The notes under the pieces are model-generated. The model saw nothing but the letters and a program-made list of their open reading frames with translations. It made no database searches and was not told the origin of the DNA. Shown piece by piece: positions 14,444 through 38,112 of a stretch of DNA of 38,924 nt. Where the stretch lies: NCBI RefSeq assembly GCF_006345805.1, contig NW_021833467.1, positions 1-38,924 on the forward strand, in the 5' to 3' direction. Both the position numbers and the translations under genes were made by a program. The DNA comes from Octopus sinensis. Lineage: Eukaryota. Each line of letters opens with the position of its first letter. Position 1 is the first letter of the stretch.

Positions 14444-14700
14444 TTGCAGCGTAGAAGGTGTTTGTAAGCCATTTAAGAAACACAAAAACCGTTAAATTCA
14501 CTTCAACATTTAAATTTAATTTGCCAAAATATTTTCGTCGCTTTGAGACCGCGACCTGTTCACTGACAAAAATATCGTGCTAACAGGTCGCGGTCTCAAA
14601 GCGACGAAAATATTTTGACAAATTTAATTTAAATGTTGAAGTGAATCTAACGGTTTTTGTGTGTTTCTTAAATGGCTTATAAACACCTTCAACGCTGCAA
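14444..14700. repeat. Fold-back element: ~117-bp inverted arms with a 21-nt spacer
   Basis: 14444-14560 is a near-perfect reverse complement of 14582-14700. Confidence 0.95.
14520..14570 (-). ncRNA. Minimal hammerhead with swapped G3-C8 core
   Basis: tttgtca-GTGAACA-g-gtcgc-ggtctcaaa-gcgac-GAAA-atat-TT-tggcaaa. Confidence 0.6.
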
Positions 14701-14862
14701 CTGTTTTCGTTCCAGCACACGATCTCAGATCAAGTCACTTGCTATGCATGTACATCTCTGTAACTATATATATATTTATATATATATATATATGTATATT
14801 GGTAAAAACAGTAAGATAACAAAAGAAAGAAAGAGACCTCAATATTATGTAAATAGAGGAAA

Positions 14863-15257
14863 TCTTTATATATAAAAGTGAGGTTGTGTGTCTGTCTCCT
14901 ACGATTTAGATTCCTAACTACTCCCACATTTTGCGGTGCAGTTTAACCAAAACCGGGTATCTTATAGTCGTGATTCATATCGAGACCGTCTGGGTATTAG
15001 CGCGCGTCTACGATGAGTCTACGATTTAAAAAAAAAATTTACCATCAATTTTTCCCATTTTTAATCCATTTTTGACATATATAAGGGAAGTAACTCTCTA
15101 AAATTTATTATTAAATCTCAGAACGTAAAAAGCTACAGTAACACCCCTCCCCCTTTGAGGTTAGCCATATTGAGATGGCTATTATACTTACATCTCTAAA
15201 AATGCTTATATAATTATTTCCCTTACAAACCCGAGCAACGCCGGGCGATACTGCTAG
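14863..15257 (+). mobile_element. Complete 395-bp non-autonomous Helitron
   Basis: A|TCTTTATATATAAAAG ... hairpin cccgagcaacgccggg ... CTAG|T. Confidence 0.85.
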
Positions 15258-15310
<53 letters not shown>

Positions 15311-15606
15311 ATTATATATATATATATATCATATATATACAAGCAGTAATAATTGTCGTCGATCGGGTAATTCTACTGTTTCTCGGGACAAAAAACTTGA
15401 AAATGGGTATTTCATATAGAAAAATAGCTTTACGGTATCCAGGTCCACTATTTATGGACAACCTATAATTCGGGATTGAGAAATTTGAAAATGAAATTCG
15501 TAAGCAATCATAGATAACCACATACACTTGCATTTATACACACATATATGTATTTTTATGTCTATATATATCTGTATGTGTGTGTGTGTGTGCGTGAGTG
15601 TGTGTT

Positions 15607-15659
<53 letters not shown>

Positions 15660-15763
15660 ATATATATATATATTATATATATATATATAGAGTTGTGGGG
15701 TATCGCACGAGTGGAATTATATACGAAAGAAGGTTTGAAAATGCAATTTAAAAGATGTTTATT

Positions 15764-15805
15764 TACTTAACCGGTTTCACTCTTTGGTAAAAAATTGTCA
15801 AAAAT
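15764..15805 (-). ncRNA. Minimal hammerhead-like motif with U3-A8 core (weak stem II)
   Basis: tattt-TTGACAA-ttttttaccaaagagt-GAAA-ccgg-TT-aagta. Confidence 0.4.
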
Positions 15806-16174
15806 AACATTGAATAATATGGGTTCAAAAAAGTTTTTTACATAATTGTCACATTGAATATTATGAATTCAAAAATGTTTTTTTATACATAATTGTCACA
15901 TTACATGTATAAATATAGTGTTTGGTAACAGAGAAATTCAATAGTGTGATGAGAATATTTGGAAAAATTGGCAGAAAAGAATAAAACAAATATATTATTG
16001 GAAATTTGGTTGCGTTAATTATTGGTTGTCGCAAATTGTCACATTACATGTATATATATACAGCCTTTGGTAGAAAGGACATGTTAAAGACACAAGGAAG
16101 TGCAATAGTTTGGTGAGAAAATTTGTAATATTGCCAGAAAAAATGGATATTTTATACATCTCAGAATATTTTGA

Positions 16175-16287
16175 GTTGAAGGCGAGAATTTGTTTTTACT
16201 GACCTGTTGGCTTTAGCAGAAAAGTTGAATTGAGAGAAAAAAATGTTGTACCCAACAGGTCAGTAAAAACAAATTCTCGCCTTCAAC
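16175..16287. repeat. Perfect 36-bp inverted repeat with a 41-nt spacer
   Basis: gttgaaggcgagaatttgtttttactgacctgttgg (16175-16210) and its reverse complement (16252-16287). Confidence 0.95.
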
Positions 16288-16316
16288 ACACACACGCACA
16301 CACACACACACACACA

Positions 16317-16738
16317 TATATATAAATAAACGCAATGAATATCTGATTCATAATATTTGTTCTCATGATTGTGTGGTGTTTGTAGCGATGATAATTCTCC
16401 CTATGACTGCCGACAGATACATCAAAGAAAGCCGTCTGACGACCTTATAAAGGGAAAGTGAAAGGGAGTTGAGGGGAATACATTAAATAACGGGAGTGGA
16501 CATTGTCAACGTTATGAATGAAGGGGAGTAAGAGAGGGAAAGGAGGAAATAACGTGAGTGAGGATGATGGCCCCTAGCAACCACACCTTTTAAGATAGGG
16601 ATTTCTAAGGTAGCCCACGAGCATCATCATCTCATTCTACATGTCCCTTTAAACTTTGGAGCGAATAGGACGGGTCGTAGTGGCATTGAAAGCAACCCAA
16701 GGGGTAAAAACGCATTTCAGTTTTATATATAGAGAAGA
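16317..16738 (-). mobile_element. Helitron 5' segment (copy at 26473-26895; inverted paralog at 5643-6055)
   Basis: Minus strand starts A|TCTTCTCTATATATAAAACTGAAATGCG. Confidence 0.7.
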
Positions 16739-16749
16739 TATATATAAAT

Positions 16750-17015
16750 GAATCAAATAAACGTCCAAGGCTGTGAAAGATTTCAGAACATTTATAGAGA
16801 GGTCTTCCAGCTGTTCCAGGGATATTTTATATATCCTTTCATCGAAGACGGTGTGAGAAAATGGTTAAGCAATAGTTATTCTAGAATAACTATTGCTTAA
16901 CCATCTTCTCGCACCGTCTCCGATGAAGAGATACATAAATATCCCGGAAACAGCTGTAACGTCTTCTCTTTAGAAATGTTCTTAAATCTTTCTTAGCCTT
17001 GCATCTTTATTTCCT
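16750..17015. repeat. Spacerless palindrome of a PLE-type terminal repeat with HHR-like motifs in both arms (copy ~26907-27170)
   Basis: Perfect 44-bp palindrome at 16861-16904 with diverged outer arms. The right arm reads gtct-CCGATGA-agagata-cataaa-tatcccg-GAAA-cagctg-TA. Confidence 0.8.
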
Positions 17016-17142
17016 TCTGTTAATTTTATACATATAGATGTTAAAATATGACCAACGTTGGACTCCTCATTTGCATGTCCATAGCACTTACTCAGCTTTC
17101 ACTCACACATTTGGTTCTCCTTGACAACTTTACATCTCATAT

Positions 17143-17187
<45 letters not shown>

Positions 17188-17312
17188 ATAGTAGTAGTTG
17201 TAGTAACAGAAAAGAGGAATTTTGATTACCCCCACGTGGTGAGGTGTCATGTATATAAGAAATTAAAAAAGGAAAATACGCACACTTACATAGTTTTAAT
17301 ATAATTTTTAAT

Positions 17313-17347
17313 ATATTGACCGGTTTCGATATCGCTATTCATGATAT
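17313..17347 (-). ncRNA. Minimal hammerhead with A3-U8 core (copy 27469-27503)
   Basis: atatc-ATGAATA-gcgatatc-GAAA-ccgg-TC-aatat, ~280 bp downstream of a PLE ORF end on the same strand. Confidence 0.5.
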
Positions 17348-17627
17348 TATATTTTACTTATTTGAATATATATTTTTTCTTAGAAAGAAATTTTGTCCAT
17401 GTTATGTTTGATGAAATTCAGGAGTGAATGACTTCACAAGTGGATAAATAAGGGCGGTTATTGGTTGTCGTTATTCATGTTATTGTTGTGGGTAAGGGAG
17501 ATAACGGTTCAGCTTTCGGTAATTATATAGGAGTACAGACAGACAAGTTTCAAAAACCTTGTTTAGTAGGGGATTTATGTACAGTGATGTAATTGTGAAT
17601 TGAAATATATAAAAAGATAACAGTTGG

Positions 17628-18180
17628 TTATGCGTGGATATTAAGGCGTTTTCTTGTATTTTCAATGAAAAAAGTTTCTTTATTTAAACGCTCTAGTTGA
17701 GAGATTGCGTCTTTGCACTGGTAAAAAGGGAAGAGTGTGAAATTTGGTTTGATGTTACCTGCACATGTTTCTATATGTTCACTGAAAGAAATTTGTCTGT
17801 ATTCCGGGAAACGGATTTGCCCTTTATTTAGAGTGGTTCTCTTTCTCAAGGTCATACTCGATGGTCCAATATAGTGGTGTCATCAACCCGAGCAGGTTAT
17901 TACATGAATTTGGTTTTCAGATGCACAAGTGAAACTAGTTTTAATTTGAACCTCTGTCCTTGTTTGAAAAGTAAGTCCGAGCCTTCAAGCAGGTTGGGGC
18001 AGGTTCCACAGTTTGGGCGTCCATATTTTTCAACCATTGGTTTTTTGGTTGCTTTGTAAAGCTTCGCGTTTGTTAGTAGTCTGGATCCCATCAGACACAT
18101 CGATAAAGTTGTGTTGTGACTAAAGATTTTGAGTGTCATCTGACATGTAGTTATGCTGCCATCTAGTTGGGGAACGAATA
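17628..18180 (-). pseudogene. Penelope-like GIY-YIG endonuclease domain, 5'-truncated
   Basis: GRPNCGTCPNL...YIGPSSMTLRKRTTLNKGQIR...SEHIETCA...RLNKETFFI. Homologous to the C-terminus of the 9250-11280 element. Confidence 0.85.
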
Positions 18181-18378
18181 AAATACAAATAAGACTGCAG
18201 AGATGCAAAAGATTCAAATATGAACGAGGAAGTCTTGCGTTCCTCTTTAGATAAAGTGACCTAATGAGCTTTCGCTTTCATAACTGCTTAGAGGGAAAAG
18301 AAAGTAGTAGAAGAGAAAGAAGAAAGAAAATAGGGAGAAGAGGAAAACGAATACTCAGTCAAAAATAAATGTAATTAT

Positions 18379-18455
18379 TGGAGATCTTATTCCTTGTCTC
18401 TCTGCAGTGGAGATCTTATTCCTTGTCTCTCTGCAGTGGAGATCTTATTCCTTGT
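18379..18455. repeat. 29-bp tandem repeat x2.7 (copy ~28546-28623)
   Basis: Unit tggagatcttattccttgtctctctgcag. Confidence 0.9.
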
Positions 18456-19059
18456 CAGCTGTGTATACCTCTGTTCCTCACTTTGAGATGTTCTGTTTTT
18501 TTCGTAGTGCACAGTCTGTTCGTTTCTTGGTATGCTTCCCTTTCTGCAGCTGTCTCTCTTTCCCTGGACAGAGACATTTTTTGGCTTTACCTTGACATTG
18601 TACAAAAATTTGACACCTTCCTTCTAGGCATGGTTATACAGAAATACACGGCGAAGAAGATAGTAAACAATGAAAATAACTGGGTAACGAAAATTATATT
18701 TCTTAATACGACAAGCAGAACATTAACAAGATAGTTTTCCGGACAATAAAGAATTGTACGTGTTGAAGCGAAATTTGTTACTAACTGAACCAAAGTGCCA
18801 GTATCGAAGGAACCAGAAATAAGCCATTAACAACACATAAGCAAAAAACCGGCGCAAAAGTAAATAAGAAATTTTTAGGGAAATTAACTATGTGCGCGGG
18901 TTTAAGTGAAATGTTTGAAGTTACTCCTGGCAGTAAATTATGAACTTACATTTATTAGTAATTCCTTCAACAACAACAAAAAGAAAACACAAAACGTTGC
19001 AAAAGTAAATAAGAAATTTACAGAAGTGTACGGATTGAAGTGGAATTTATGACGTTACA

Positions 19060-19935
19060 GCCCCCGGGAACATCTGCAGAGAAATAGAAAGATTCCAGCA
19101 TCTCACCTCAACCTTTTCTTTCCAATGTCTTTAATGACTGCATCAGCGATCCCTTTCTGCTCGTTGGTAAGGGTTGCAATGAGTGGGTGGTTCATGTCAT
19201 CTTTCTGCTCAACCTGTTACATTCCAGTTGGTACAAGCAAGCTAATATTAATGCAGCTAGTGCCATTTTCAATAAACACAGAATTTATGGAGTGTAGAGT
19301 CTGCATTCAGCCCTCGGTGAGCATAATCTTCCATCATAGAATTCTTGTCAGTATTCCACAGGCGAAGAACATTGGAAGGATTTGAATAGGTGCAGAGGAC
19401 AGCAAACGTAATACGCAACTGAAATGGCATCCGATACGCAGCAGCTTCAAGTATAGTATGTTCCAAACCCTCATCATTTTGGAGGAGACCAACTCATATG
19501 TACGCATCTTTAAATGTTGCATAGATTCCACCTCCTACACTGCTCACTTCTCAAAGCGCTTAGCACCTGGAACATCCAAAATACCAATTTTGAATAAATT
19601 TTTTTTACGTCCTTAAGGTTTTCAGGGTGCAGTTATTTCATTGAAAGGGGTAAAATTGTAGCGCCTTATATAAACCGTTCTTTTGAAACGTATTTCACAC
19701 TTTCGTAATTGTACATTTTCACTCCTGGCACCTCCAATCTCTTGTTGTTCAATTAAGTGCATGTTCCCATATAACTCAGCCTAAGGATTTACTTGTTGCA
19801 CATGACATCCATTCTTTGAGAAGAGCTTTGGGAGTTCTGACTTGCTTCCACTCTGCGATGCATTAATAATATACAACTGACTGTACTGCAGGTGACCATT
19901 GACAGTTCGTAGTGTTGTGCGAAGTTTGGCCCTGA
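19060..19935 (-). pseudogene. Helitron RepHel relic, downstream part (copy ~29229-30105)
   Basis: IQGQ...LQYSQLYII, then LEAAAYRMPFQLRITFAVLCTYSNPSNVLRLW...MMEDY and LTNEQKGIADAVI just before a broken PIF1 Walker-A region. Confidence 0.85.
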
Positions 19936-19939
19936 ATAC

Positions 19940-22900
19940 GTTCTATATCCTGGTATTGGATATATAATTTAACGAATCTGTTTACACGACGCAATACGAT
20001 TACTATTACATGAGACTCGACGCTCTCTGCCAACGGATCATAGGGAAATGCTTACCAATCAATTGTTCACAATCAATTGCTTACGACTAGACTGTTCTCC
20101 ATGTAATGGAAATGTGTCAGACCACTTTTAGTCACTTGTAATGTTGTCAGAATCTTTCCACAGCATATCCCCTTTATAGAATTAGTCTCCCCTAAATTCT
20201 CCACTTGAGAATTAAAGTCACTCAGAGTTTTAATATCTCTTATGCTTAGGGCTCAATTCTTGTTTCCGTTCTTTTCGTTTTCAGGTGCTAGAACGTGTAA
20301 TTGCAAATTGTTTCTGTGCTGGTACCTCAAACGTGTCGTGCAATACTTTCATGAGAAATTCACTTCTTTTGTCTGATTTTTCCTTGAATCAGGTTTTAAG
20401 TTGGTTAATAAGTCTTTTATGTTCGATAATTGTTTTTACCTTTTACCAGGAATATCATTCTTGCAATTTATTTAACAATTGTACCATCCTCCCAGCCTTG
20501 TTTAATATATGTATAGGTCTTTAATAAAGTTTGTCAGCTAACTTGAAGAATTTTGAAATATTATTCCTTTTTTTTTTATTTTCACTCGGTATCGGCTGAT
20601 CAAAGATGGATCTGATTATTCTAACAAACATCAAATATCTTTGTAACCAGAGATGTTTGCTTTCTACGTTTATGCACTTCAGACCGTGTTGAAAAACATT
20701 CCCCAACAACGAAGTGACATGAAACCTTAAGTGGTTTTGGCCACGGGTGCCATTTTGTGACGGGTGTATTATGAGCTATCACTATATCTTCAATGTTACA
20801 GTCCGTTGTTGGCCAGTATACCTAACTTCTCATTAACGATTTCATTATTGAAATCCCTTTGACTCAATATGAAATTCCTTTAGTAATTGCTTTTGTAGTG
20901 TGGCTGGCACTACGACTCTTTGTGCATACATCAGCACATTGTCACACCTTGTGATAGGCTCGAATATCTTTTATCTCTTTTACCCTTTTGCATTTCTTTC
21001 ATTTTTTAGTGAATATATCGTTTCCCAATTGTAATTTTATATCTTGTAAGGTAAATAGCAGTTCACGCATGGAGTTATACCGTTTGCTTTTAATTTCATT
21101 TTCTATTCGCAAAGTAGCAATCACGGTATCTTCAAATGGTTCAGCATTTTCTGAAATCTGTCTTGATAAAGAATTACCGTGTCCTAATTATTTAGATGGG
21201 ATATACTCTATCTTAAATTCATAGTTTAATGATACAGTACCCCAGCGTTGCAGCCTATTAGCAGTACGGCTAGATCTTTATTTCTTTTACTCGTATACTG
21301 ATAATAACGGACGATGATCTGTCTGTATTCAAAAACGTCTGCCGTGTAAAAATCTATGCTATTTTTTAAGCCAAAAATAATTACAAGAGCCTCTTTTTTG
21401 ATTTGGCTGTGAGTTTTTTCTGCTGATATCAAGAACCACCGCCTTCCTGTTACCATCTTTTTATTTATGTAGCATTACTGCGCCAATACAGTATTCAGAG
21501 GCATCTGAAGTTACAACATTCTCCGCTACAGAATCGAAGCGTGCTAACAACAAATCAGATGTTAATATTTTAAAATTTCGTCGAATTCCCTTTGACAATT
21601 TTCAGAGCAATTTCAATTGACATTTTTTAAATACATAATCTACTGTAACGCTTACCCTATGCATATTTAGAATATAATTTTGGTAATAATTTGCTTGTCT
21701 CCAAAGCAATCATGTAAGGCCGTCATATTTGTCGGAGGGTCATGTATTTAATTGCGTCTGCCTTCAACGGATCTGGTCCTCGTCCATTTCTTTCAATTTT
21801 ATTTTCGGTAATAAAAAATTTCACGCTTTCTTTTTCAATGTAATCCCTAATTTTTTCGAACATATATATTACTTGCTCTACATGGTGATCCCGTGATTCG
21901 CATTTAATGAGTATATCATCCAGATATGGAAATGCAAATTTACTATCGCTAACACTGCATCCATAAGCTGTTAAAAAATCGGTGTGACATTAAAGACATA
22001 TAATAACCTGTTGTATATATATATATATATGCGTTAAGTTTTAGGTATTTATAGCATTCATCGTCTACGCTAATATGTAGGCACGCGTCGGAGACATCCA
22101 ATTAAGAAAATACCTTGTGGAAAGTTTTAAGACACTCATTTAAACCAGTGGAAAAAATCAGCATACACTCTGATTTTGTTTATTTGTTTCTAATGCTGCA
22201 AAAGCTTATCCGTTCCAACGATGCAAAAGTTACAGTTCGTTTATATTTAAATACCGGTTTGGCATTTACTTTTACTTGGAACTTCGTTTTCGTTGTGATG
22301 CTCAGATCTAATTTATCAGAAAGAACTTCAAGAAAAATCTTTTAAAATTATTTCTACAAATCGTCTGACGATTCATTTGTATTGGCAAGAAAATCATTCA
22401 CATTTTTACTGAAAAGATTTATGGGGAGTTCCCATAAGTTAAACAATTCTATTCAGTGTTCCGAATAAATTTGTGATATCTTTGGTTTTTATGGTTTTCC
22501 TACGAAATGGGACGTGATTTATCATTACACCATTAAAATGTAATTATTTTCCTGAAACACCACCTACAATTTTCGAAATGTCTTTTAATCTAGGAATTCT
22601 GTTTTTTTCTATATATCTGTGTTAATTATCGAGATATAACTGCCTTTATCTAGTTGCAACTTTACGTCCACAAATTTCCTTTGAGGCTGTTCGTTTTTTG
22701 GTCACCGATAACCTGTTTTCGTGTTTTCTTTCTGTTGAAATGTTTTCCAGGTTTTTTCTACAGTGTGATTGTTTATGATCTCTCTTGCCACATTTGACTC
22801 CTTTTATATTTTTAAACGGGCAATTACTTTTAAAATGTTGACCACCGCCCCATAAGATTATTCGATCTTGACATTTTTTCTCTTATTTCTTATCCGTGAC

Positions 22901-24139
22901 GCTGGAGACACTGGAATATGAGAGCAATCTCTTTCTTCAATTTCGGGCGTCGCTTTCTTCATTTTTTTCTGCGTTGTCTTTCCTGACATTCTTCTGCTTC
23001 TGTCTGTAGAGTTACTTTTTGTCCAGTTCTAATTTTGTTGACATCCGTGAACATATATCTCCATCTTTGCTTGCAGTTAGGCCTTAAACCAAAAATATAA
23101 AATTGAACATCATCTTAATTCATATAATTTGAATTATTTACACTTTCCGTTAACATCCTCGGCACAGGTGACGAAATCTTCATGTTTTTGGACAAAATAT
23201 AAAAACTGTCCTCAAAGTATTTAGCAGAGAACTTCTTTCACTGAAACGTTTAGATAAAATTTCGTATTTCGGATTTTAAACGGGCAGTTACTTTTAAAAT
23301 GTAGACCACAACATGGACTCCTTCTTGACATTTTTTGTCTTATTTCTGGTCCGTTACGGTGGAGACACTGGAATATGAGAGCAATCTTTTTCTTCATTTT
23401 TTTCTGCGTCGAGTCCCCTGGCATTTTTCTGCTTCTGTCTGTAGAGTTAATTTTTATCCAGTTCTAAATCATTTGATAAAATATTAATAGTTTTTATTGA
23501 AACAAATCTCACCTGACTTCTTCGGCAGAATATAATTACTATATATTTTTTGTATTTGGCAAAAGGATACCTGTCTTACAAGGTAGTCGTACTATTTTCC
23601 CTCTCAGATCAATTTTTAAATTCTTCTTTGAGAATTTCTTCGTATCTTCGAAATTATGCAGAGAAGGTAATCCCATCTTCTGGATTATAACTGAATACTT
23701 CAATAGAGATTGCTACGCTGTCTGGCAAGTTTAACATTAATTCCAGCAACTATTGGTTTCGTTGTTGTTGCTGTTGTAGTTGCTCTTGTTGTTGTTACAA
23801 TTGTTGCTGTTGCAACTGCACCACAGACGCCAATAAGCCTTCTATCTTAAACGATTTTTCTTTGGTTTCATACCCATCCCAAACAAATTTAAACATCCAA
23901 CGCAAACTTCGAAGAACTCTTCGCCACTTTTATACCCTGGTTTGGAACATATGATTTTAGTAATCAGGGGGAAAGAAAGTGTTTACACGATGCGACACGA
24001 TTACCCAACGCTCTCTGTCAATGGCTCACAGTGAACTATTTACCAATTAATTGATGAAGACTCGACAGTTGTCTATTTAATAGGAATATGTCAGTACCCT
24101 TCTAGTCAATTGGAAGGTGGTTGGAATCCTTCCACAACA
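19940..24139 (-). mobile_element. Gypsy LTR retrotransposon, old and decayed
   Basis: LTRs at 19940-20165 and 23927-24139 (starting TGCTGTGGAA and TGTTGTGGAA). PBS TGGCGAAGAG, PPT TAAAGGGGATA, TSD ATAC at 19936-19939 and 24140-24143. Coding motifs: gag knuckle CGLHFKSNCPFK, protease LQLDKGSYISII, RT PYLDDILI, RNase H SQIKKEALVIIF. Confidence 0.9.
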
Positions 24140-24143
24140 ATAC

Positions 24144-24915
24144 AGAAACAATGTAGACCTCTTCCTTGCGGCACAGAGAGTGTCACACCAAATGACGTAA
24201 AGGAAGACATGCAGTTGTAATTGCTGATGTTTTTTTCGAAATGAAGCAGACTCTTGGTAATTTTTTTCAGACAAACGCTTCAATGTCTGAAAGTTTAGTT
24301 GCAGTGGAGAAAAATTCACTTTATTATTGTGACAGAACAATGAAGTTTACATATTTAAAGTTCAGTGCTCCACAATACTCGCAATATAAGTACATATCAC
24401 CAATACGATAGGTTCGTTTAGGATTATTGTGTCTGTTCAGTGGTAGTCCATGTCTTCCTTCACGCTTTCGTTGCACCAGTTCATCTCGCAAACGTAACGC
24501 CTGTTCAGCATTCATACTTGCAACTCCATCTTGATGTCTCTCTGTTTGATCTTGGAGACAAGCAGCCCTTTCCAAATCATCCATATTCTCCCTTCTCTGT
24601 TACATAACATTTTTCTGTTGGTCCTGATACTGCGCACGCTGCATATCATTCATGTTTTCCATTCTCCGCAGAAATATCAATCTTTGTTGTTCCTCGTACT
24701 GTGTTTGTTCTTCCTCATCCTGTCTTCTACTTTGGTCTCGCATTCTCTCTCATTACAAATGTGCCTTGCGTTGCTGTTCATCTATTGCAGATTGGCTCAT
24801 CTGTTGGTACCATTTGTCCCTTTCTCTGGTTTCTTACCGCTGTTCTTCTCTTATACGCTGCCTGTAGTGCATAACCCTCTCGCTAGTAGCTTCTAATCTT
24901 CTTTAACTTTCCATT
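24144..24915 (-). pseudogene. Helitron RepHel relic, N-terminal part (copy ~34342-35113)
   Basis: R/E/Q-rich coiled-coil repeats, then IGDMYLYCEYCGALNF...CHNNKV...ESASFRK...YNCMSSFTSFG...GRGLHCF, the Helitron N-terminal zinc-finger region. Confidence 0.85.
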
Positions 24916-25157
24916 GTTCAGTCACGTTTTGTAATTTGCTTATTTCATAAGCACAGCTTTGGAAAAAGGATCAAATAACCTTAAATTGCGAATTTCTATC
25001 TCCCCCATAGCGGAAGCACTACCAACGGCGGCATGTATGAGAAGCAGTAACAACATTAATCGGGGTCTTGTAGAGATGGAATTTACTGTGTCCACCTTTA
25101 TTTTAATTGAAATATATATATTTTAATTATAGTGTATATTTTTCTTAACTGTAATAT

Positions 25158-25243
<86 letters not shown>

Positions 25244-25974
25244 TCGTACATATGACACTGTAAATGAGTGTGAATATTAGCAGAATTGCATTTATGAGCA
25301 TGTGTTAAGTGAAAGGTGGTATAAAATACTTAGTTCAATTCAAAAGTTACTTTGCATTATGCACTCACAATTACCACTACCACCACTACCACCGTCTCTC
25401 ACTCCCCCTTTCTCTCATTTTCTCAGTTTATCTACCTATCTCTCTATCTACCTATCTGCCTTATTTTAATCTCACCATCAGCACATCACCGTTCTACTAA
25501 AATTATATTCGTAACCCTCCTCAATATCACGACCTTCATCTAACATTTTCTTCACGTAATAAATATTACGTTCCCCCTACCACAATGTTCTCTCCCTCTT
25601 TTTCTCCCTTGGTTTTTTCTCTCTCCCTCTCTTTCTGCCCCACTCTTCGACTTACTATCGTTTTCTCATTCCTTTTTCTTTCTCTTGGTCTCTCATTCTA
25701 TTTAACTAATCACGTGAAAGCATTACAGTCACGTTCCTTCTACCTCAGGTCATGGACATTTCTCTTTCGCTCTTTTTCGTTCTCCCTCTTTTTCTCTAAT
25801 CACGAGAAAGCTTTACCGACGGACTAATTAACATAATGACAAGCAGAATGATTATAAGATCAGAAATATTATATTTAAGTTTTCTTCATGACAGACTCCT
25901 TCGTTTCCTCCTTATTTTTTACATCATTCTTTTCTTCAGCTCCTACATTTTCTGCCACTTCTCTTATTGTTGTT

Positions 25975-26059
25975 TTAACGTTGTTACCGTTGTTGTTGCT
26001 CATCATCGTTATCATCATAATCAACATCATCATCTTCTTCTTCTTCTTCTTCTTTTTCT

Positions 26060-26091
<32 letters not shown>

Positions 26092-26145
26092 TACTACTGC
26101 TACTACTACTACTACCACAACTACTGCTGCTGCTGCTGCTTCATC
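25975..26145. repeat. Compound trinucleotide array (GTT/CAT/CTT/CTA/CTG)n (copy ~36182-36355)
   Basis: Seen directly. Confidence 0.9.
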
Positions 26146-26428
26146 GTTGTTTCCTTTTTCGGCCTATTCTTCATCATCAACTTTCTCTTATGTTAGTCAT
26201 CTTCTTCATAATAAGATCTCGATATGTCATCCAATGTCATTTCCACAAACTAAATGTCTCTCTTATCTTCTTTATTTACCCTCATCCTTCTACAATTCAT
26301 ATTGTCTTGCAATTTGTGTTTGCCTGTGTGTAAGAAAGTGGGAATATATGTGAGGGCTGGAAGTGAGTGTGTGCGTTCATACATCAGGGTTTGATAAGGT
26401 ATATATAGGTGGATGTGTGTATGTACAC

Positions 26429-26481
<53 letters not shown>

Positions 26482-27298
26482 AATGAACGCAATGAATATC
26501 TGATTCATAATATTTGTTCTCATGATTGTGTGGTGTTTGTAGCGATGATAATTCTCCCTATGACTGCCGACAGATACATCAAAGAAAGCCGTCTGACGAC
26601 CTTATAAAGGGAAAGTGAAAGGGAGTTGAGGGGAATACATTAAATAACGGGAGTGGACATTGTCAACGTTATGAATGAAGGGGAGTAAGAGAGGGAAAGG
26701 AGGAAATAACGTGAGTGAGGATGATGGCCCCTAGCAACCACACCTTTTAAGATAGGGATTTCTAAGGTAGCCCACGAGCATCGTCACCTCATTCTACATG
26801 TCCCTTTAAACTTTGGAGCGAATAGGACGGGTCGTAGTGGCATTGAAAGCAACCCAAGGGGTAAAAACGCATTTCAGTTTTATATATAGAGAAGATATAT
26901 ATAAATGAATCAAATAAACGTCCAAGGCTGTGAAAGATTTCAGAACATTTATAGAGAGGTCTTCCAGCTGTTCCAGGGATATTTTATATATCCTTTCATC
27001 GAAGACGGTGTGAGAAAATGGTTAAGCAATAGTTATTCTAGAATACCTATTGCTTAACCATCTTCTCGCACCGTCTCCGATGAAGAGATACATAAATATC
27101 CCGGAAACAGCTGTAACGTCTTCTCTTTAGAAATGTTCTTAAATCTTCTTAGCCTTGCATCTTTATTTCCTTCTGTTAATTTTATACATATAGATGTTAA
27201 AATATGACCAACGTTGGACTCCTCATTTGCATGTCCATAGCACTTACTCAGCTTTCACTCACACATTTGGTTCTCCTTGACAACATTACATCTCATAT

Positions 27299-27343
<45 letters not shown>

Positions 27344-27794
27344 ATAGTAGTAGTTGTAGTAACAGAAAAGAGGAATTTCGATTACCCCCACGTGGTGAGG
27401 TGTCATGTATATAAGAAATTAAAAAAGGAAAATACGCACACTTACATAGTTTTAATATAATTTTTAATATATTGACCGGTTTCGATATCGCTATTCATGA
27501 TATTATATTTTACTTATTTGAATATATATTTTTTCTTAGAAAGAAATTTTGTCCATGTTGTGTTTGATGAAATTCAGGAGTGAATGACTTCACAAGTGGA
27601 TAAATAAAGGGCGGTTATTGGTTGTCGTTATTCATGTTATTGTTGTGGGTAAGGGAGATAACGGTTCAGCTTTCGGTAATGGGTGCGGATTATATAGGAG
27701 TACAGACAGACAAGTTTCAAAAACCTTGTTTAGTAGGGGATTTATGTACAGTGATGTAATCGTGAATTGAAATATATAAAAAGATAACAGTTGG

Positions 27795-28347
27795 TTATGC
27801 CTGGATATTAAGGCGTTTTCTTGTATTTTCAATGAAAAAAGTTTCTTTATTTAAACGCTCTAGTTGAGAGATTGCGTCTTTGCACTGGTAAAAAGGGAAG
27901 AGTGTGAAATTTGGTTTGATGTTACCTGCACATGTTTCTATATGTTCACTGAAAGAAATTTGTCTGTATTCCGGGAAACGGATTTGCCCTTTATTTAGAG
28001 TGGTTCTCTTTCTCAAGGTCATACTCGTTTGTCCAATATAGTGGTGTCCTCAACCCGAGCAGGTTATTACATGAATTTGGTTTTCAGATGCACAAGTGAA
28101 ACTAGTTTTAATTTGAACCTCTGTCCTTGTTTGAAAAGTAAGTCCGAGCCTTCAAGCAGGTTGGGGCAGGTTCCACAGTTTGGGCGTCCATATTTTTCAA
28201 CCATTGGTTTTTTGGTTGCTTTGTAAAGCTTCGCGTTTGTTAGTAGTCTGGATCCCATCAGACACATCGATAAAGTTGTGTTGTGACTAAAGATTTTGAG
28301 TGTCATCTGACATGTAGTTATGCTGCCATCTAGTTGGGGAACGAATA
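27795..28347 (-). pseudogene. Penelope-like GIY-YIG domain, duplicate copy
   Basis: Same as 17628-18180. Confidence 0.85.
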
Positions 28348-30109
28348 AAATACAAATAAGACTGCAGAGATGCAAAAGATTCAAATATGAACGAGGAAGT
28401 CTTGCGTTCCTCTTTAGATAAAGTGACCTAATGAGCTTTCGCTTTCAAAACTGCTTAGAGGGAAAAGAAAGTAGTAGAAGAGAAAGAAGAAAGAAAATAG
28501 GGAGAAGAGGAAAACGAATACTCAGTCAAAAATAAATGTAATTATTGGAGATCTTATTCCTTGTCTCTCTGCAGTGGAGATCTTATTCCTTGTCTCTCTG
28601 CAGTGGAGATCTTATTCCTTGTCAGCCGTGCAAACCTCTGTTCCTCACTTTGAGATGTTCTGTTTTTTTCGTAGTGCACAGTCTGTCCGTTTCTTGGTAT
28701 GCTTCCCTTTCTGCAGCTGTCTCTCTTTCTCTAGACAGAGACATTCTTTTGGCTTTATCTTGACATTGTAGACAGATTTGACACCTTCCTTCTAGGCATG
28801 GTTATACAGAAATACACGAGCGCAGAAGATAGTAAACAATGAAAATAACTGGGTAACGAAAATTATATTTCTTAATACGACAAGCAGAACATTAACAAGA
28901 TAGTTTTACGGACAATAAAGAATTGTACGTGTTGAAGCGAAATTTGTTACTAACTGAACCAAAGTGCCAGTATCGAAGGAACCAGAAATAAGCCATTAAC
29001 AACACATAAGCAAAAAACCGGCGCAAAAGTAAATAAGAAATTTTTAGGGAAATTAACTATGTGCGCGGGTTTAAGTGAAATGTTTGAAGTTACTCCTGTC
29101 AGTAAATTATGAACTTACATTTATCAGTAATTCCTTCAACAACAACAAAAAGAAAACACAAAACGTTGCAAAAGTAAATAAGAAATTTACCGAAGTGTAC
29201 GGATTGAAGTGGAATTTATGAAGTTACAGCCCCCGGGAACATCTGCAGAGAAATAGAAAGATTCCAGCATCTCACCTCAACCTTTTCTTACCAACTGTCT
29301 TTAATGCCTGCATCAGCGATCCCTTTCTGCTCGTTGGTAAGGGTTGCAATGCGTGGGTGGTTCTTGTCATCTTTCTGCTCAACCCGTTACATTCCAATTG
29401 GTACAAGCAAGCTAATATTAATGCAGCTAGTGCCATTTTCAATAAACACAGAATTTATGGAGTGTAGAGTCTGCATTCAGCCCTCGGTGAGCATAATCTT
29501 CCATCATAGAATTCTTGTCAGTATTCCACAGGCGAAGAACATTGGAAGGATTTGAATAGGTGCAGAGGACAGCAAACGTAATACGCAACTGAAATGGCAT
29601 CCGATACGCAGCAGCTTCAAGTATAGTATGCTCCAAACTCTCATCATTTTGGAGAAGACCAACTCATATGTACGCATCTTTAAATGTTGCATAGATTTCA
29701 CCTCCTACACTGCTCACTTCTCAAAGCGCTTAGCACCTGGAACATCCAAAATACCAATTTTGAATAAATTTTTTTTACGTCCTTAAGGTTTTCAGGGTGC
29801 AGTTATTTCATTGAAAGGGGTAAAATTGTAGCGCCTTATATAAACCGTTCTTTTGAAACGTATTTCACACTTTCGTAATTGTACATTTTCACTCCTGGCA
29901 CCTCCAATCTCTTGTTGTTCAATTAAGTGCATGTTCCCATATAACTCAGCCTAAGGATTTACTTGTTGCACATGACATCCATTCTTTGAGAAGAGCTTTG
30001 GGAGTTCTGACTTGCTTCCACTCTGCGATGCATTAATAATATACAACTGACTGTACTGCAGGTGACCATTGACAGTTCGTAGTGTTGTGCGAAGTTTGGC
30101 CCTGAATAC

Positions 30110-33100
30110 GTTCTATATCCTGGTATTGGATATATAATTTAACGAAGCTGTTTACACGACGCAATACGATTACTATTACATGAGACTCGACGCTCTCTGC
30201 CAACGGATCATAGGGAAATGCTTACCAATCAATTGTTCACAATCAATTGCTTACGACTAGACAGTTCTCCATGTAATGGAAATGTGTCAGACCACTTTTA
30301 GTCACTTGTAATGTTGTCAGAATCTTTCCACAGCATATCCCCTTTATAGAATTAGTCTCCCCTAAATTCTCCACTTGAGAATTAAAGTCACTCAGAGTTT
30401 TAATATCTCTTATGCTTAGGGCTCAATTCTTGTTTCCGTTCTTTTCGTTTTCAGGTGCTAGAACGTGTAATTGCAAATTGTTTCTGTGCTGGTACCTCAA
30501 ACGTGTCGTGCAATACTTTCATGAGAAATTCACTTCTTTTGTCTGATTTTTCCTTGAATCAGGTTTTAAGTTGGTTAATAAGTCTTTTATGTTCGATAAT
30601 TGTTTTTACCTTTTACCAGGAATATCATTCTTGCAATTTATATAACAATTGTACCATCCTCCCAGCCTTGTTTAATATATGTATAGTTCTTTAATAAAGT
30701 TTGTCAGCTAACTTGAAGAATTTTGAAATATTATTCCTTTTTTTTTTATTTTCACTCGGTATCGGCTGATCAAAGATGGATCTGATTATTCTAACAAACA
30801 TCAAATATCTTTGTAACCAGAGATGTTTGCTTTCTACATTTATGCACTTCAGACCGTGTTGAAAAACATTCCCCAACAACGAAGTGACATGAAACCTTAA
30901 GTGGTTTTGGCCACGGGTGCCATTTTGTGACGGGTGTATTATGAGCTATCACTATATCTTCAATGTTACAGTCCGTTGTTGGCCAGTATACCTAACTTCT
31001 CATTAACGATTTCATTATTGAAATCCCTTTGACTCAATATGAAATTCCTTTAGTAATTGCTTTTGTAGTGTGGCTGGCACTACGACTCTTTGTGCATACA
31101 TCAGCACATTGTCACACCTTGTGATAGGCTCGAATATCTTTTATCTCTTTTACCCTTTTGCATTTCTTTCATTTTTTAATGAATATATCGTTTCCCAATT
31201 GTAATTTTATATCTTGTAAGGTAAATAGCAGTTCACGCATGGAGTTATACCGTTTGCTTTTAATTTCATTTTCTATTCGCAAAGTAGCAATCACGGTATC
31301 TTCAAATGGTTCAGCATTTTCTGAAATCGGTCTTGATAAACAATTACCGTGTCCTAATTATTTAGATGGTATATACTCTATCTTAAATTCATAGTTTAAT
31401 GATACAGTACCCCAGCGTTGCAGCCTATTAGCAGTACGGCTAGATCTTTATTTCTTTTACTCTTGTACTGATAATAACGGACGATGATCTGTCTGTATTC
31501 AAAAACTTCTGCCGTGTAAAAATCTATGCAATTTTTTACGGCAAAAATAATTACAAGAGCCTCTTTTTTGATTTGGCTGTAATATTTTCTGCTGATATCA
31601 AGAACCACCGCCTTCATGTTACCATCTTTTTATTTATGTAGCATTACTGCGCCGATACAGTATTCAGAGGCATCTGAAGTTACAACATTCTCCGCTACAG
31701 AATCGAAGCGTGCTAACAACAAATCAGATGTTAATATTTTAAAATTTCGTCGAATTCCCTTTGACAATTTTCAGAGCAATTTCAATTTACCTTTTTTAAA
31801 TACATAATCTACAGTAACACTTACCCTATGCATATTTAGAATATGATTTTGGTCATAATTTGCTTGTCTCCAAAGCAATCATGTAAGGTCGTCATATTTG
31901 TCGGAGGGGGCATGTATTTAATTGCGTCTGCCTTCAACGGATCTGGTCCTCGTCCATTTCTTTCAATTTTATTTTCGGTAATAAAAAAATTCACGCTTTC
32001 TTTTTCAATATAATCCCTAATTTTTTCGAACATATATATTACTTGCTCTACATGGTGATCCCGTGATTCGCATTTAATGAGTATATCATCCAGATATGGA
32101 AATGCAAATTTACTATCGCTAACACTGCATCCATAAGCTGTTGAAAAATCGGTGTGACATTAAAGACATATAATAACCTGTTGTATATATATATATATAT
32201 ATGCGTTAAGTTTTAGGTATTTATAGCATTCATCGTCTACGCTAATATGTAGGTACGCGTCGGAGACATCCAATTAAGAAAATACCTTGTGGAAAGTTTT
32301 AAGACACTCATTTAAACCAGTGGAAAAAATCAGCATACACTCTGATTTTGTTTATTTGTTTCTAACGCTGCAAAAGCTTATCTGTTCCAACGATGCAAAA
32401 GTTACAGTTTGTTTATATTTAAATACCGGTTTGGCATTTACTTTTACTTGGAACTTCGTTTTCGTTGTGATGCTGAGATCTAATTTATCAGAAAGAACTT
32501 CAAGAAAAATCTTTTAAAATTATTTCTACAAATCGTCTGACGATTCATTTGTATTGGCAAGAAAATCATTCACATTTTTACTGAAAAGATTTATGGGGAG
32601 TTCCCATAAGTTAAACAATTCTATTCAGTGTTCCGAATAAATTTGTGATATCTTTGGTTTTTAAGGTTTTCCTACGAAATGGGACGTGATTTATCATTAC
32701 ACCATTAAAATGTAATTATTTTCCTGAAACACCACCTACAATTTTCGAAATGTCTTTTAATCTAGGAATTCTGTTTTTTTCTATGTATCTGTGTTAATTA
32801 TCGAGATATAACTGCCTTTATCTAGTTGCAACTTTACGTCCACAAATTTCCTTTGAGGCTGTTCGTTTTTTGGTCACCGATAACCTGTTTTCGTGTTTTC
32901 TTTCTGTTGAAATGTTTTCCAGGTTTTTTCTACAGTGTGATTGTTTATGATCTCTCTTGCCACATTTGACTCCTTTTATATTTTTAAACGGGCAATTACT
33001 TTTAAAATGTTGACCACCGCACCCATAAGATTAATTCGATCTTGACATTTTTTCTCTTATTTCTTATCCGTGACGCTGGAGACACTGGAATATGAGAGCA

Positions 33101-34337
33101 ATCTCTTTCTTCAATTTCGGGCGTCGCTTTCTTCATTTTTTTCTGCGTTGTCTTTCCTGACATTCTTCTGCTTCTGTCTGTAGAGTTACTTTTTGTCCAG
33201 TTCTAATTTTGTTGACATCCGTGAACATATATCTCCATCTTTGCTTGCAGTTAGGCCTTAAACCAAAAATATAAAATTGAACATCATCTTAATTCATATA
33301 ATTTGAATTATTTACACTTTCCGTTAACAGCCTCGGCACAGGTGACGAAATCTTCATGTTTTTGGACAAAATATAAAAACTGTCCTCAAGTATTTAGCAG
33401 AGAACTTCTTTCACTGAAACGTTTAGATAAAATTTCGTATTTCGGATTTTAAACGGGCAGTTACTTTTAAAATGTAGACCACAACATGGACTCCTTCTTG
33501 ACATTTTTTGTCTTATATCTGGTCCGTTACGGTGGAGACACTGGAATATGAGAGCAATCTTTTTCTTCATTTTTTTCTGCGTCGAGTCCCCTGGCATTCT
33601 TCTGCTTCTGTCTGAAGAGTTAATTTTCGTCCAGTTCTAAATCAATTGATAAAATGTTAATAGTTTTTATTGTAACAAATCTCACCTGACTTCATGGGCA
33701 GAATATAATTACTACATTGTTTGTATTTGGCAAGGGATACCTGTCTTACAAAGTAGTCGTACTATTTTTCCTCTCAGATCAATTTTTAAATTCTTCTTTG
33801 AGAATTTCTTCGTATCTTCGAAATTATGCAGAGAAGGTAATCCCATCTTCTGGATTATAACTGAATACTTCAATAGAGATTGCTACGCTGTCTGGCAAGT
33901 TCACACTTGAAGTATTTTTTAGACTTCTTTAACATTAATTCCAGCAACTATTGGTTTCGTTGTTGTTGCTGTTGTAGTTGCTCTTGTTGTTGTTACAATT
34001 GTTGCTGTTGCAACTGCACCACAGACGCCAATAAGCCTTCTATCTTAAACGATTTTTCTTTGGTTTCATACCCATCCCAAACAAATTTAAACATCCAACG
34101 CAAACTTCGAAGAACTCTTCGCCACTTTTATACCCTGGTTTGGAACATATGATTTTAGTAATCAGGGGGAAAGAAAGTGTTTACACGATGCGACACGATT
34201 ACCCAACGCTCTCTGTCAATGGCTCACAGTGAACTATTTACCAATTAATTGATGAAGACTCGACAGTTGTCTATTTAATAGGAATATGTCAGTACCCTTC
34301 TAGTCAATTGGAAGGTGGTTGGAATCCTTCCACAACA
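30110..34337 (-). mobile_element. Gypsy LTR retrotransposon, duplicate copy
   Basis: LTRs at 30110-30335 and 34125-34337. TSD ATAC at 30106-30109 and 34338-34341. Confidence 0.9.
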
Positions 34338-35367
34338 ATACAGAAACAATGTAGACCTCTTCCTTGCGGCACAGAGAGTGTCACACCAAATGACGTAAAG
34401 GAAGACATGCAGTTGTAATTGCTGATGTTTTTTTCGAAATGAAGCAGACTCTTGGTAATTTTTTTCAGACAAACGCTTCAATGTCTGAAAGTTTAGTTGC
34501 AGTGGAGAAAAATTCACTTTATTATTGTGACAGAACAATGAAGTTTACATATTTAAAGTTCAGTGCTCCACAATACTCGCAATATAAGTACATATCACCA
34601 ATACGATAGGTTCGTTTAGGATTATTGTGTCTGTTCAGTGGTAGTCCATGTCTTCCTTCACGCTTTCGTTGCACCAGTTCATCTCGCAAACGTAACGCCT
34701 GTTCAGCATTCATACTTGCAACTCCATCTTGATGTCTCTCTGTTTGATCTTGGAGACAAGCAGCCCTTTCCAAATCATCCATATTCTCCCTTCTCTGTTA
34801 CATAACATTTTTCTGTTGGTCCTGATACTGCGCACGCTGCATATCATTCATGTTTTCCATTCTCCGCAGAAATATCAATCTTTGTTGTTCCTCGTACTGT
34901 GTTTGTTCTTCCTCATCCTGTCTTCTACTTTGGTCTCGCATTCTCTCTCATTACAAATGTGCCTTGCGTTGCTGTTCATCTATTGCAGATTGGCTCATCT
35001 GTTGGTACCATTTGTCCCTTTCTCTGGTTTCTTACCGCTGTTCTTCTCTTATACGCTGCCTGTAGTGCATAACCCTCTCGCTAGTAGCTTCTAATCTTCT
35101 TTAACTTTCCATTGTTCAGTCACGTTTTGTAATTTGCTTATTTCATAAGCACAGCTTTGGAAAAAGGATCAAATAACCTTAAATTGCGAATTTCTATCTC
35201 CCCCATAGCGGAAGCACTACCAACGGCGGCATGTATGAGAAGCAGTAACAACATTAATCGGGGTCTTGTAGAGATGGAATTTACTGTGTCCACCTTTATT
35301 TTAATTGAAATATATATATTTTAATTATAGTGTATTTTTTCTTAACTGTAATATATATATATATATA

Positions 35368-35449
<82 letters not shown>

Positions 35450-36266
35450 TCGTACATATGACACTGTAAATGAGTGTGAATATTTAGCAGAATTGCATTT
35501 ATGAGCATGTGTTAAGTGAAAGGTGGTATAAAATACTTAGTTCAATTCAAAAGTTACTTTGCATTATGCACTCACAATTACCACTACCACCACTACCACC
35601 GTCTCTCACTCCCCCTTTCTCTCATTTTCTCAGTTTATCTACCTATCTCTCTATCTACCTATCTGCCTTATTTTAATCTCACCATCAGCACATCACCGTT
35701 CTACTAAAATTATATTCGTAACCCTCCTCAATATCACGACCTTCATCTAACATTTTCTTCACGTAATAAATATTACGTTCCCCCTACCACAATGTTCTCT
35801 CCCTCTTTTTCTCCCTCGGTTTTTTCTCTCTCCCTCTCTTTCTGCCCCACTCTTCGACTTACTATCGTTTTCTCATTCCTTTTTCTTTCTCTTGGTCTCT
35901 CATTCTATTTAACTAATCACGTGAAAGCATTACAGTCACGTTCCTTCTACCTCAGGTCATGGACATTTCCCTTTCGCTCTTTTTCGTTCTCCCTCTTTTT
36001 CTCTAATCACGAGAAAGCTTTACCGACGGACTAATTAACATAATGACAAGCAGAATGATTATAAGATCAGAAATATTATATTTAAGTTTTCTTCATGACA
36101 GACTCCTTCTTTTCCTCCTTATTTTTTACATCATTCTTTTCTTCAGCTCCTACATTTTCTGCCACTTCTCTTATTGTTGTTTTAACGTTGTTACCGTTGT
36201 TGTTGCTCATCATCGTTATCATCATAATCAACATCATCATCTTCTTCTTCTTCTTCTTCTTTTTCT

Positions 36267-36298
<32 letters not shown>

Positions 36299-36661
36299 TT
36301 CTACTACTGCTACTACTACTACTACCACAACTACTGCTGCTGCTGCTGCTTCATCGTTGTTTCCTTTTTCGGCCTATTCTTCATCATCAACTTTCTCTTA
36401 TGTTAGTCATCTTCTTCATAATAAGATCACGATATGTCATCCAATGTCATTTCCACAAACTAAATGTCTCTCTTATCTTCTTTATTTACCCTCATCCTTC
36501 TACAATTCATATTGTCTTGCAATTTGTGTTTGCCTGTGTGTAAGAAAGTGGGAATATATGTGAGGGCTGGAAGTGAGTGTGTGCGTTCATACATCAGGGT
36601 TTGATAAGGTATATATAGGTGGATGTGTGTATGTACACACACGCACACACATACAGATACA

Positions 36662-36708
<47 letters not shown>

Positions 36709-37620
36709 CTCGCTCTGATACTGAGTTGAGTTGATGCCTTCTAGTATCTCAAAATTCAATATATAATCATTTATGATTATAGTATTCTACGCTGAAGAGA
36801 ATCTACGTTATCTACGTCCGTAGATAACTTAAAATTGTATGATAGATTGCCGTCAATTCATTCTCTCTTACCTGTTTGTGTCTGCCTTCCAATTGCTGTT
36901 TTTACTGAGATCTCCCTTTTTAGTAGAAGAAATAGCTATAACTCTTTGACTGCTATTTCTAAATTCAGTATGTGGTAAGGCAATTCGTTGCTAAACCCTT
37001 TATTGCTTAGTATTACTTAAATTTTCCTCGAATGAGGCTTTTACATGCCGAAGACTACATGGTGTAATTGATAATTATTCCAAATTAATTAATTTCACCC
37101 CTCATTATTACGGATAACCATATTTTATCTCAGTAGATAACCACAGCATCTTGTTTTGGCTACACGCGGGTGGGAAGGGGCTGGTGACACAATCTTTTCA
37201 TTCAAACATTGAGTTTGGTGATACTAGTTGCGGATTCTAGCTCGCTCTGATACTGAGTTGAGTTGGTGCCTTCTAGTATCTCAAAATTCAATATATAATC
37301 ATTTATGATTATAGTATTCTACGCTGAAGAGAAAGGAAGTTTTGGTGAGATAGAATTATTTAATATTTAATATTTAATATTTAATTCTTATGCTTTCCTA
37401 AAAACTTGATTTCGAAACGTACGTCCGTAGATAACTTAAAATTGTATGATAGATTGCCGTCAATTCATTCTCTCTTACCTGTTTGTGTCTGCCTTCCAAT
37501 TGCTGTTTTTACTGAGATCTCCCTTTTTAGTAGAAGAAATAGCTATAACTCTTTGACTGCTATTTCTAAATTCGGTATGTGGTAAGGCAATTCGTTGCTA
37601 AACCCTTTATTGCTTAGTAT
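36709..37620 (+). mobile_element. Retrozyme-like / PLE pLTR direct-repeat element
   Basis: Direct repeats at 36709-37013 and 37241-37620 around a 227-bp spacer, flanked by (TA)n on both sides. Non-coding, with an HHR in the repeat. Confidence 0.7.
37318..37431 (+). ncRNA. Intact type-I hammerhead ribozyme with long stem II
   Basis: tctacg-CTGAAGA-gaaa...83 nt hairpin...tttc-GAAA-cgtacg-TC-cgtaga. GUC triplet, predicted cleavage after 37425. Confidence 0.85.
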
Positions 37621-37633
37621 ATATATATATATA

Positions 37634-38112
37634 TATTCTTGTATTTAGGAATGGTCATTTTGTCAGTTTAGCCAATAAAAACTCACGCACTATATATTTG
37701 GTGTTACTTTGATTCAGCTTTATTTATTTTTGACATTAATCTTAATCTTCTTTCGAACGTATATAAACAGGAGATACAAATATTACAGGCACTCCCTCCC
37801 ACATACACACACACTTTAACTAAATATAGACACATATAGAGGTATACACAGGCGCAAGTAAAGACACATACAATAGAAATACAAAATACAAAATGGCTGA
37901 CCGTTAGTAAGAAGAGACACACAAATATAAATGAAGAAAGCAATGAACCACTGACGAAGTCACAGGAGCGTGACGAAAGATCTCTGGCCGAAATAAGAGT
38001 AAGATTGATGTGAAAAATAAATAACGCTGAAGCAAAGTAACACCAAATATATAGTGCGTGTGTTTTTTATTGGCTAAACTGGCAATATGACCATTCCGAA
38101 ATACAACAAATA
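37634..38112. repeat. Fold-back element: ~120-bp imperfect inverted arms with a ~230-bp spacer
   Basis: 37634-37757 vs reverse complement of 37988-38112, e.g. gcactatatatttggtgttactttg / caaagtaacaccaaatatatagtgc. Confidence 0.9.
37948..37987 (+). ncRNA. Minimal type-I hammerhead ribozyme
   Basis: cca-CTGACGA-a-gtcac-aggagc-gtgac-GAAA-gatc-TC-tgg, with palindromic AGATCT in stem III. Confidence 0.8.

Follow-up and report, generated by a model that had tools for sequence, protein, structure and literature searches.

Hammerhead motifs of Penelope-like elements in one animal genome carry each of the four Watson-Crick pairs at positions 3 and 8

Introduction

Contig C9938 (38,924 bases), analysed here in its entirety and referred to as the window, is part of a repeat-rich 2.72-Gb animal genome (G000) and contains several minimal hammerhead ribozyme motifs, some of which deviate from the canonical core CUGANGA. 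An original prediction, made from the sequence of this contig, listed six hammerhead cores, proposed that they cover all four Watson-Crick pairs at positions 3 and 8, and regarded them as part of a radiation of active ribozymes in Penelope-like elements (PLEs). The locus touches on the question of whether PLE hammerheads are selected to cut RNA or are merely riding along with their carriers. Positions 3 and 8 form a tertiary pair of the active fold, which positions the 2'-OH of G8 (PMC3884650). This pair was originally deduced from crystals and rescue mutants, and its natural covariation is known only as U-A. Minimal hammerheads cleave weakly and as dimers (PMC4209133, PMC6765202). In the hammerhead of a lizard PLE, single changes at position 3 or 8 abolish cleavage, the double change C3G/G8C partly rescues it, and the reaction needs protein (PMC11167929). 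Surveys of PLEs rely on CUGANGA descriptors (PMC8557442). Our results show that the motifs are minimal type I hammerheads in the terminal repeats of many PLE families, which differ in their Watson-Crick pair at 3:8.

Results

All six cores listed in the original prediction are present where it placed them and show U4-G5-A6, A9, G12-A13-A14, A15.1-U16.1 and H17 (Table 1). The three variant sites lie on the minus strand, a detail missing from the prediction, with N3 at 14563 (G3-C8, family G-C1), 15801 (U3-A8) and 17342 (A3-U8, family A-U1). Stem I comprises 5-7 bp in family majorities, the exceptions in the window being the A-U1 copy, whose first pair is gone, and site 37951 (3 bp). The 10.1-11.1 pair of stem II, usually G-C, is present in G-C1, A-U1, a second A-U family (A-U2) and the C-G sites and absent from the window U-A family, which shows U·U at 10.1/11.1 followed by a 5-bp stem. 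In most relatives of A-U1, stem I comprises 5 bp and stem II 2 bp, most of those of A-U2 have the core AUGAAUA with a 6-bp stem I, and the stems lost from the A-U and U-A copies of the window are intact in the family majorities. A first strict descriptor recovered the G-C site, two C-G sites and one chance-like plus-strand match at 9324, missing the A-U, U-A and 5581 sites because these copies are damaged; a relaxed version gave four matches in the window, as against a mean of 0.2 and a maximum of 2 over 100 local shuffles. None of the 78 matches of an Rfam scan of the window (E<=5) was a hammerhead, even at the C3-G8 sites. Folding predictions have the G-C1 monomer form stems I and II; predicted dimers are paired through the palindrome for A-U1, U-A and two C-G copies, though not in the minimum-energy dimers of G-C1, A-U2 and 37951.

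Complementarity at 3:8 was assessed in a 1-Mb sample of the genome, made up of 100 evenly spaced 10-kb stretches on contigs C1-C10 and scanned with positions 3 and 8 free. With the first descriptor of this kind, 11 of 12 matches were Watson-Crick, the remaining one being a U·G copy within a C-G family. A scored descriptor returned 22 matches, every one Watson-Crick at 3:8 (13 C-G, 5 G-C, 4 U-A, 0 A-U), as opposed to one match in the reversed and none in the A/T-swapped control. The palindromic loop III is built into this descriptor as a requirement, and control sequences are essentially without matches (0-1). As anticipated by the original prediction, a CUGANGA-based search would miss variants, namely 9 of the 22 sampled matches; extrapolation suggests that the genome may hold roughly 24,000 variant motifs (about 11,000-46,000). 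A second set of 128 distinct matches, obtained from 2.04 Mb of DNA enriched for the searched families, falls into 26 clusters. Their majorities pair at 3:8 in 26 of 26 cases, compared with 3 of 26 at 3:7, and permutation of the clusters gave a mean of 13.9 paired, with none of 100,000 permutations reaching 26. The expected enrichment for complementarity is evident in both sets.

Reversion to C3-G8 is not seen in the family consensuses. In the sets of 30 best relatives, window locus included, the pair is found in 30 for G-C, 29 for A-U and 29 for U-A. First-look searches yielded 1,970 (G-C), 1,371 (A-U) and 1,112 (U-A) candidates genome-wide, figures that do not represent copy numbers; the 50-base motif of one G-C subfamily has 1,091 exact copies in the genome and none in the reversed control. 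Several motifs have near-twin sisters with a switched pair (A-U versus G-C, U-A versus C-G), and compensatory changes of the stems occur within families. The claim that all four Watson-Crick pairs are represented stands in that all of them occur as families, with the reservation that one amplified family has a U·G wobble. The U·U at 10.1/11.1, with pairs beyond it, recurs across the U3-A8 families L321, L328, L132, L205 and L204. As to position 17, G3 families never have C17 and A3 families never U17 as majority, a trend too thin to use, and A17 is common among U3 families.

Mismatched combinations were counted genome-wide in the class of cores ending in GAAACCGGT. Non-C3 cores have 13,170 matches (1,325 in the control), and a hand count of 100 matches listed gave 79 U-A, 16 A-U, 1 G-C and 4 unpaired. 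C3 cores are represented by 1,283 matches (137 in the control), the 100 listed comprising 69 of one stemless repeat, 18 C·A, 10 C-G and 3 others. The 18 C·A matches are single-change copies of U-A families; the stemless repeat, considered as a C3·U8 hammerhead family, was rejected, with neither stem I nor stem II in two of two copies inspected. For U3 with a partner other than A8, 486 matches face 146 in the control, and 37 of 100 listed belong to one young U·G family. In this family and its U3-A8 sisters (loci L337, G000:C1:46327306-46327495, L324 and L332), stem I is separated from the core by an additional U. For A3 with a partner other than U8, the count is at chance level (503 versus 648 in the control). 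About 27 of 100 listed A3 mismatches represent an apparent A3·G8 repeat, of which one copy is without stem I and a second without GAAA; at L336 (G000:C1:52832932-52833121), an old repeat combines a hairpin with an A3·G8-like core, again without stem I. G3-C8 cores of this class (146 versus 52 in the control) form several small families, one of them a near twin of the A-U1 motif.

All four pair types are located downstream of PLE protein sequence, in agreement with the original assignment of the motifs to these elements. This linkage covers G-C1 (L303, L302), U-A (L321, L221, L222), A-U1, A-U2 and one C-G family (L226), with sites 37324, 37951 and 5581 outside the set. In the window, the A-U1 motif lies ~300 nt behind a PLE fragment, with a spacing of 288-338 nt in 11 relatives, and the A-U2 motif ~190-200 nt behind another PLE open reading frame (ORF). 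U-A motifs are located downstream of open frames of 883 and 780 aa comprising reverse transcriptase (RT) and GIY-YIG, of which the 883-aa frame is Pfam-positive for both, and the window U-A family adjoins a broken PLE ORF in L321. A search for GIY-YIG gave 147 matches among the 150 scored of 5,029 candidates. The G-C1 motif is found in both direct pseudo-long terminal repeats (pLTRs) of a full-length PLE with one frame break (L303), and a second carrier (L302) retains a 793-aa open stretch; the pLTRs of these carriers are direct repeats with 94% identity over 659 nt and also form inverted pairs, with (TA)n flanks. A Pfam scan of the L302/L303 protein returned no RT or GIY-YIG match. We take the YVDD and VYQIKC..YIGET motifs, picked by eye in P0001 and P0002, to represent RT and GIY-YIG, respectively. 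The protein also has weak tblastn matches (E 1e-5 to 1e-6) to loci of PLEs resembling the Pfam-positive ones, and its 49% relative L208 is a GIY-YIG match. A tie of G-C1 to the PLE family of L155 (via L253) was ruled out as an insertion beside a (TA)n tract.

Immediately before stem I, the G-C1 pLTRs (L303:2520-2570) show the end of a sequence resembling a branch point and a 3' splice site, a layout that resembles the intron of D. virilis Penelope, and the first ATG of the L303 ORF lies ~55 nt downstream of the predicted cut site. Three G-C1 pLTR fragments are also present in a 6.2-kb tandem repeat (L304/L305, G000:C1:212098000-212117999), beside an ORF whose start resembles that of a dCMP deaminase.

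The history of the pair was followed on a tree built from 19 PLE proteins, with the pair type of the downstream hammerhead as label (for L125, that of a single copy located 1.9 kb away from the ORF). Of the 27 rows in a first tree, eight were omitted (four unlabelled, three short fragments and one near-duplicate). Pair type must change at least five times on the tree of 19 (minimum 3), compared with a mean of 8.3 after shuffling, and none of 200 shuffles was as low. A-U1, A-U2 and a second G-C family (L327) group together, nested among U-A families, and L338, a further G-C copy, is 74-78% like the A-U2 flanks. G-C1 is distant from L327, and a single clade for both G-C rows, a constraint group chosen after the first tree had been inspected, was rejected (p-AU 5e-61). 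The tree thereby shows two origins of G-C among the sampled protein sequences. In the best-sampled clade, the path likely led from U-A via A-U to G-C, with rare intermediates that were mismatched or wobble-paired.

A different picture emerges within families. G-C1 copies with an altered position 3 number 189; of the 100 listed, 96 retain C8 and the remaining four are double changes (two A-U, one U·G and one C·A). Inserted copies thus decay without compensation, so that selection could act only on the source elements that found families. The idea that the variants in the window are independent compensatory events must accordingly be abandoned, with covariation lying between families and not among copies. 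Likewise, the argument that random decay would rarely swap both positions is valid for founding source elements but not for inserted copies. Most copies in the genome, including the A-U and U-A motifs of the window, are best explained as dead relics.

Discussion

Why the pair should persist through successive changes is most readily understood if source elements need the motif for RNA cutting. Two transcripts, or tandem repeats, may pair through the palindrome and then cleave after H17, possibly with the PLE protein assisting hammerhead folding, and the 3:8 pair would be retained by selection for this activity. We consider it probable that selection on source elements maintains a cleavable motif by which tandem PLE transcripts are processed, and thousands of self-cutting RNAs that escape standard searches are likely encoded in the genome. 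It is tempting to go further and speculate that G3-C8 and A3-U8 hammerheads are working natural ribozymes on thousands of recently mobile PLE copies, with the 3:8 pair having walked through all four forms (from U-A via A-U to G-C in one clade, with a separate origin of G-C elsewhere), the U·G family serving as an intermediate and neither type yet in print; this extended scenario, attractive as it may be, falls somewhat short of being probable.

Several points weigh against selection for cutting or blunt the evidence for it. The 26 clusters are related, 18 of them are C-G and many are single copies, so that their independence is overstated. The tree is unrooted, with long branches that meet and four rows less than half filled, and the fork that unites the A-U families with the second G-C family has a support of 93/92. 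Two transitions (C-G/U-A and G-C/A-U) preserve complementarity, which raises the chance level for these switches, though not for that from U-A to A-U. The U3·G8 family has been amplified despite not being Watson-Crick, and a slip of one base is needed to close its stem I. At site 37951, where the window copy is canonical, seven of seven relatives compared have C9 and a non-palindromic loop III; these relatives possibly represent another variant of the core, or else a family that has spread with no functional ribozyme. Together with the U·U at 10.1/11.1 in the window U-A family, they indicate that some families spread with imperfect cores. On the experimental side, cleavage is dispensable for insertion of the lizard PLE in vitro (PMC11167929), and when one type III hammerhead was subjected to deep mutational scanning, 3:8 was rescued only by the G:C swap (PMC9901934), suggesting that A-U may be slow.

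Some of these observations would also be accommodated if the fold had been selected as a signal to the PLE protein for binding or folding, or as one for adjoining splicing or translation, rather than for cutting. This explanation draws on the dispensability of cleavage and the need for protein in the lizard system (PMC11167929), on low rates in vitro (PMC4209133), on the amplification of families whose motifs contain U·G, C9 or the 10.1/11.1 U·U, and on the position of the G-C1 motif between the 3'-splice-site-like sequence and the start of the ORF. We nevertheless regard it as unlikely, given that the 3:8 pair is part of a catalytically primed fold (PMC3884650) and that its preservation through five switches, together with GAAA and UH, would best fit chemistry, even if GAAA and UH are fixed by the descriptor and do not constitute independent evidence. 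More improbable still is a neutral founder effect, in which transition bias helped a few sources to gain complementary double changes by chance and the motifs have ceased to be of importance. Copies do decay neutrally, double transitions keep pairing and only about five switches are required; however, drift predicts that mismatched families greatly outnumber those with double changes, whereas none of the 26 clusters is mismatched, A3 mismatches are at chance level and the sole clear exception is a wobble (U·G). Moreover, two transversions are required for at least two of the switches, namely that from U-A to A-U and the one from U-A or C-G that gave rise to G-C1. Finally, an explanation by chance matching in AT-rich repeat DNA can be dismissed with near certainty: loose patterns do catch non-ribozyme repeats, as illustrated by the 69 of 100 listed C3 matches that stem from one stemless repeat, but reversed, swapped and shuffled controls are near empty (0-1 for the reversed and swapped ones), the position of the motifs behind PLE ORFs is fixed and their stems covary.

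Like the minimal hammerheads of metazoan PLEs (Cervera and de la Pena 2014, PMC4209133), the motifs described here are of type I, with a short stem I, a palindromic loop III, frequently an extra base after A9, a location in pLTRs, many families per genome and inverted pairs. That study reported a U3-A8 variant, with about 1,300 matches in S. mansoni, and the 56 representative motifs in its Fig. S3 comprise 53 C3-G8, two U3-A8 and one U3·G8, with no G3-C8 or A3-U8. In contrast, each of the four pairs is represented here by families within a single genome, the U·U at 10.1/11.1 is recurrent, and many C-G families have a stem/loop II of 50-90 nt. The G-C, A-U and U-A families do not conform to the canonical C3-G8 core (CUGANGA), and the published description admits U3-A8; they are therefore classed as variants. 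Natural compensatory U3-A8 core variants were termed rare by Perreault et al. 2011 (PMC3088659), which describes this type only, whereas variant cores make up nine of the 22 sampled matches here. Engineered C3G/G8C mutants (PMC11167929, PMC9901934, PMC8495972) have shown that G3-C8 partly restores the cleavage abolished by single changes, but these are laboratory constructs and not natural families. The scan in which only the G:C swap was effective (PMC9901934) contrasts with the large A-U and U-A families of this genome.

A genome with four pairs, each tied to a retrotransposon family on a tree, provides a natural confirmation of 3:8 and a source of ready test RNAs. A-U is the sharp case because the mutational scan found no A-U rescue. 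Repeated compensation favours selection, and the degree to which weak motifs are tolerated can be read from the families with U·G, C9 and U·U. In practical terms, CUGANGA descriptors overlook nine of 22 sampled motifs and Rfam overlooks all sites in the window. A 2017 paper by Lünse, Weinberg and Breaker reportedly deals, by its title, with small variant hammerheads of PLEs and their cleavage as dimers, and may already list G3-C8 or A3-U8. Within our coverage of the literature, which did not extend to Lünse 2017, Przybilski 2007, Martick 2006, Weinberg 2015 and Hammann 2012, no natural G3-C8 or A3-U8 family was found in print, and the accessible portions of PMC11014351, PMC10085705 and PMC8782182 yielded nothing on 3:8 variants. 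The novelty of the radiation, which the original prediction had left to be checked, is accordingly reduced for U3-A8, already published for PLEs (PMC4209133), and may be retained, within this coverage, for the other two types.

Other features of the window

Table 1. Positions of hammerhead motifs and associated features in the window, with the relatives of site 37951 given by locus.
Feature	Position	Strand	Remarks
G3-C8 minimal hammerhead, family G-C1	14520..14570	-	stem I of 7 bp, stem II of 5 bp, additional G following A9, GAAA, palindrome AUAU, U17
Inverted pLTR pair around the G-C motif	14480..14662	.	81-nt arms, 96% complementary; core absent from plus-strand arm
U3-A8 minimal hammerhead, slightly decayed	15763..15807	-	G·U within stem I, 10.1-11.1 pair absent
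A3-U8 minimal hammerhead, family A-U1, decayed	17313..17347	-	first stem I pair and one stem II pair lost relative to most relatives
A-U1 twin site	27469..27503	-	within the 10.2-kb tandem duplication; not in the original prediction
A3-U8 hammerhead, second family (A-U2)	9013..9052	-	decayed: G9, broken palindrome; not in the original prediction
C3-G8 hammerhead (site 37324)	37318..37431	+	6-bp stem I, 83-nt stem/loop II, palindrome CGUACG, C17
Partial tandem copy of the site 37324 hammerhead	36759-37013		
C3-G8 hammerhead (site 37951)	37948..37987	+	only 3-bp stem I, extra A after A9, 5-bp stem II
Relatives of site 37951	L168:5194-5349, L299, L295, L227, L327		among 7
C3-G8 hammerhead relic (site 5581)	5478..5584	-	long loop II, palindrome imperfect
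PLE ORF 3' fragment (GIY-YIG end)	17640..18082	-	tblastn 47-49% to L197; ~300 nt upstream of the A-U1 hammerhead, same strand
Broken PLE RT-GIY-YIG ORF	9235..10927	-	end ~190 nt upstream of the A-U2 hammerhead

The inverted pLTR pair is predicted to fold into a long single hairpin that would sequester the G-C ribozyme of the window. The short palindromic G-C1 derivative to which it belongs (14445-14760) is present in many copies at 98-99% identity despite this predicted sequestration.

No intact long ORF was found in the 38,924 bases of the window. A 10.2-kb tandem duplication (16286-26473 and 26443-36683) shows 98.4% identity, and neighbourhoods resembling it were found again on C29 and several small contigs, pointing to a segmental duplication family or an assembly duplicate. 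An imperfect hairpin element of 258 nt at 16755-17012 (and 26912-27168) has a weak Rfam match to MIR821, far under the family threshold. The segment 1182-2135 is GC-richer, with frames open on both strands, and is probably a piece of another retroelement.

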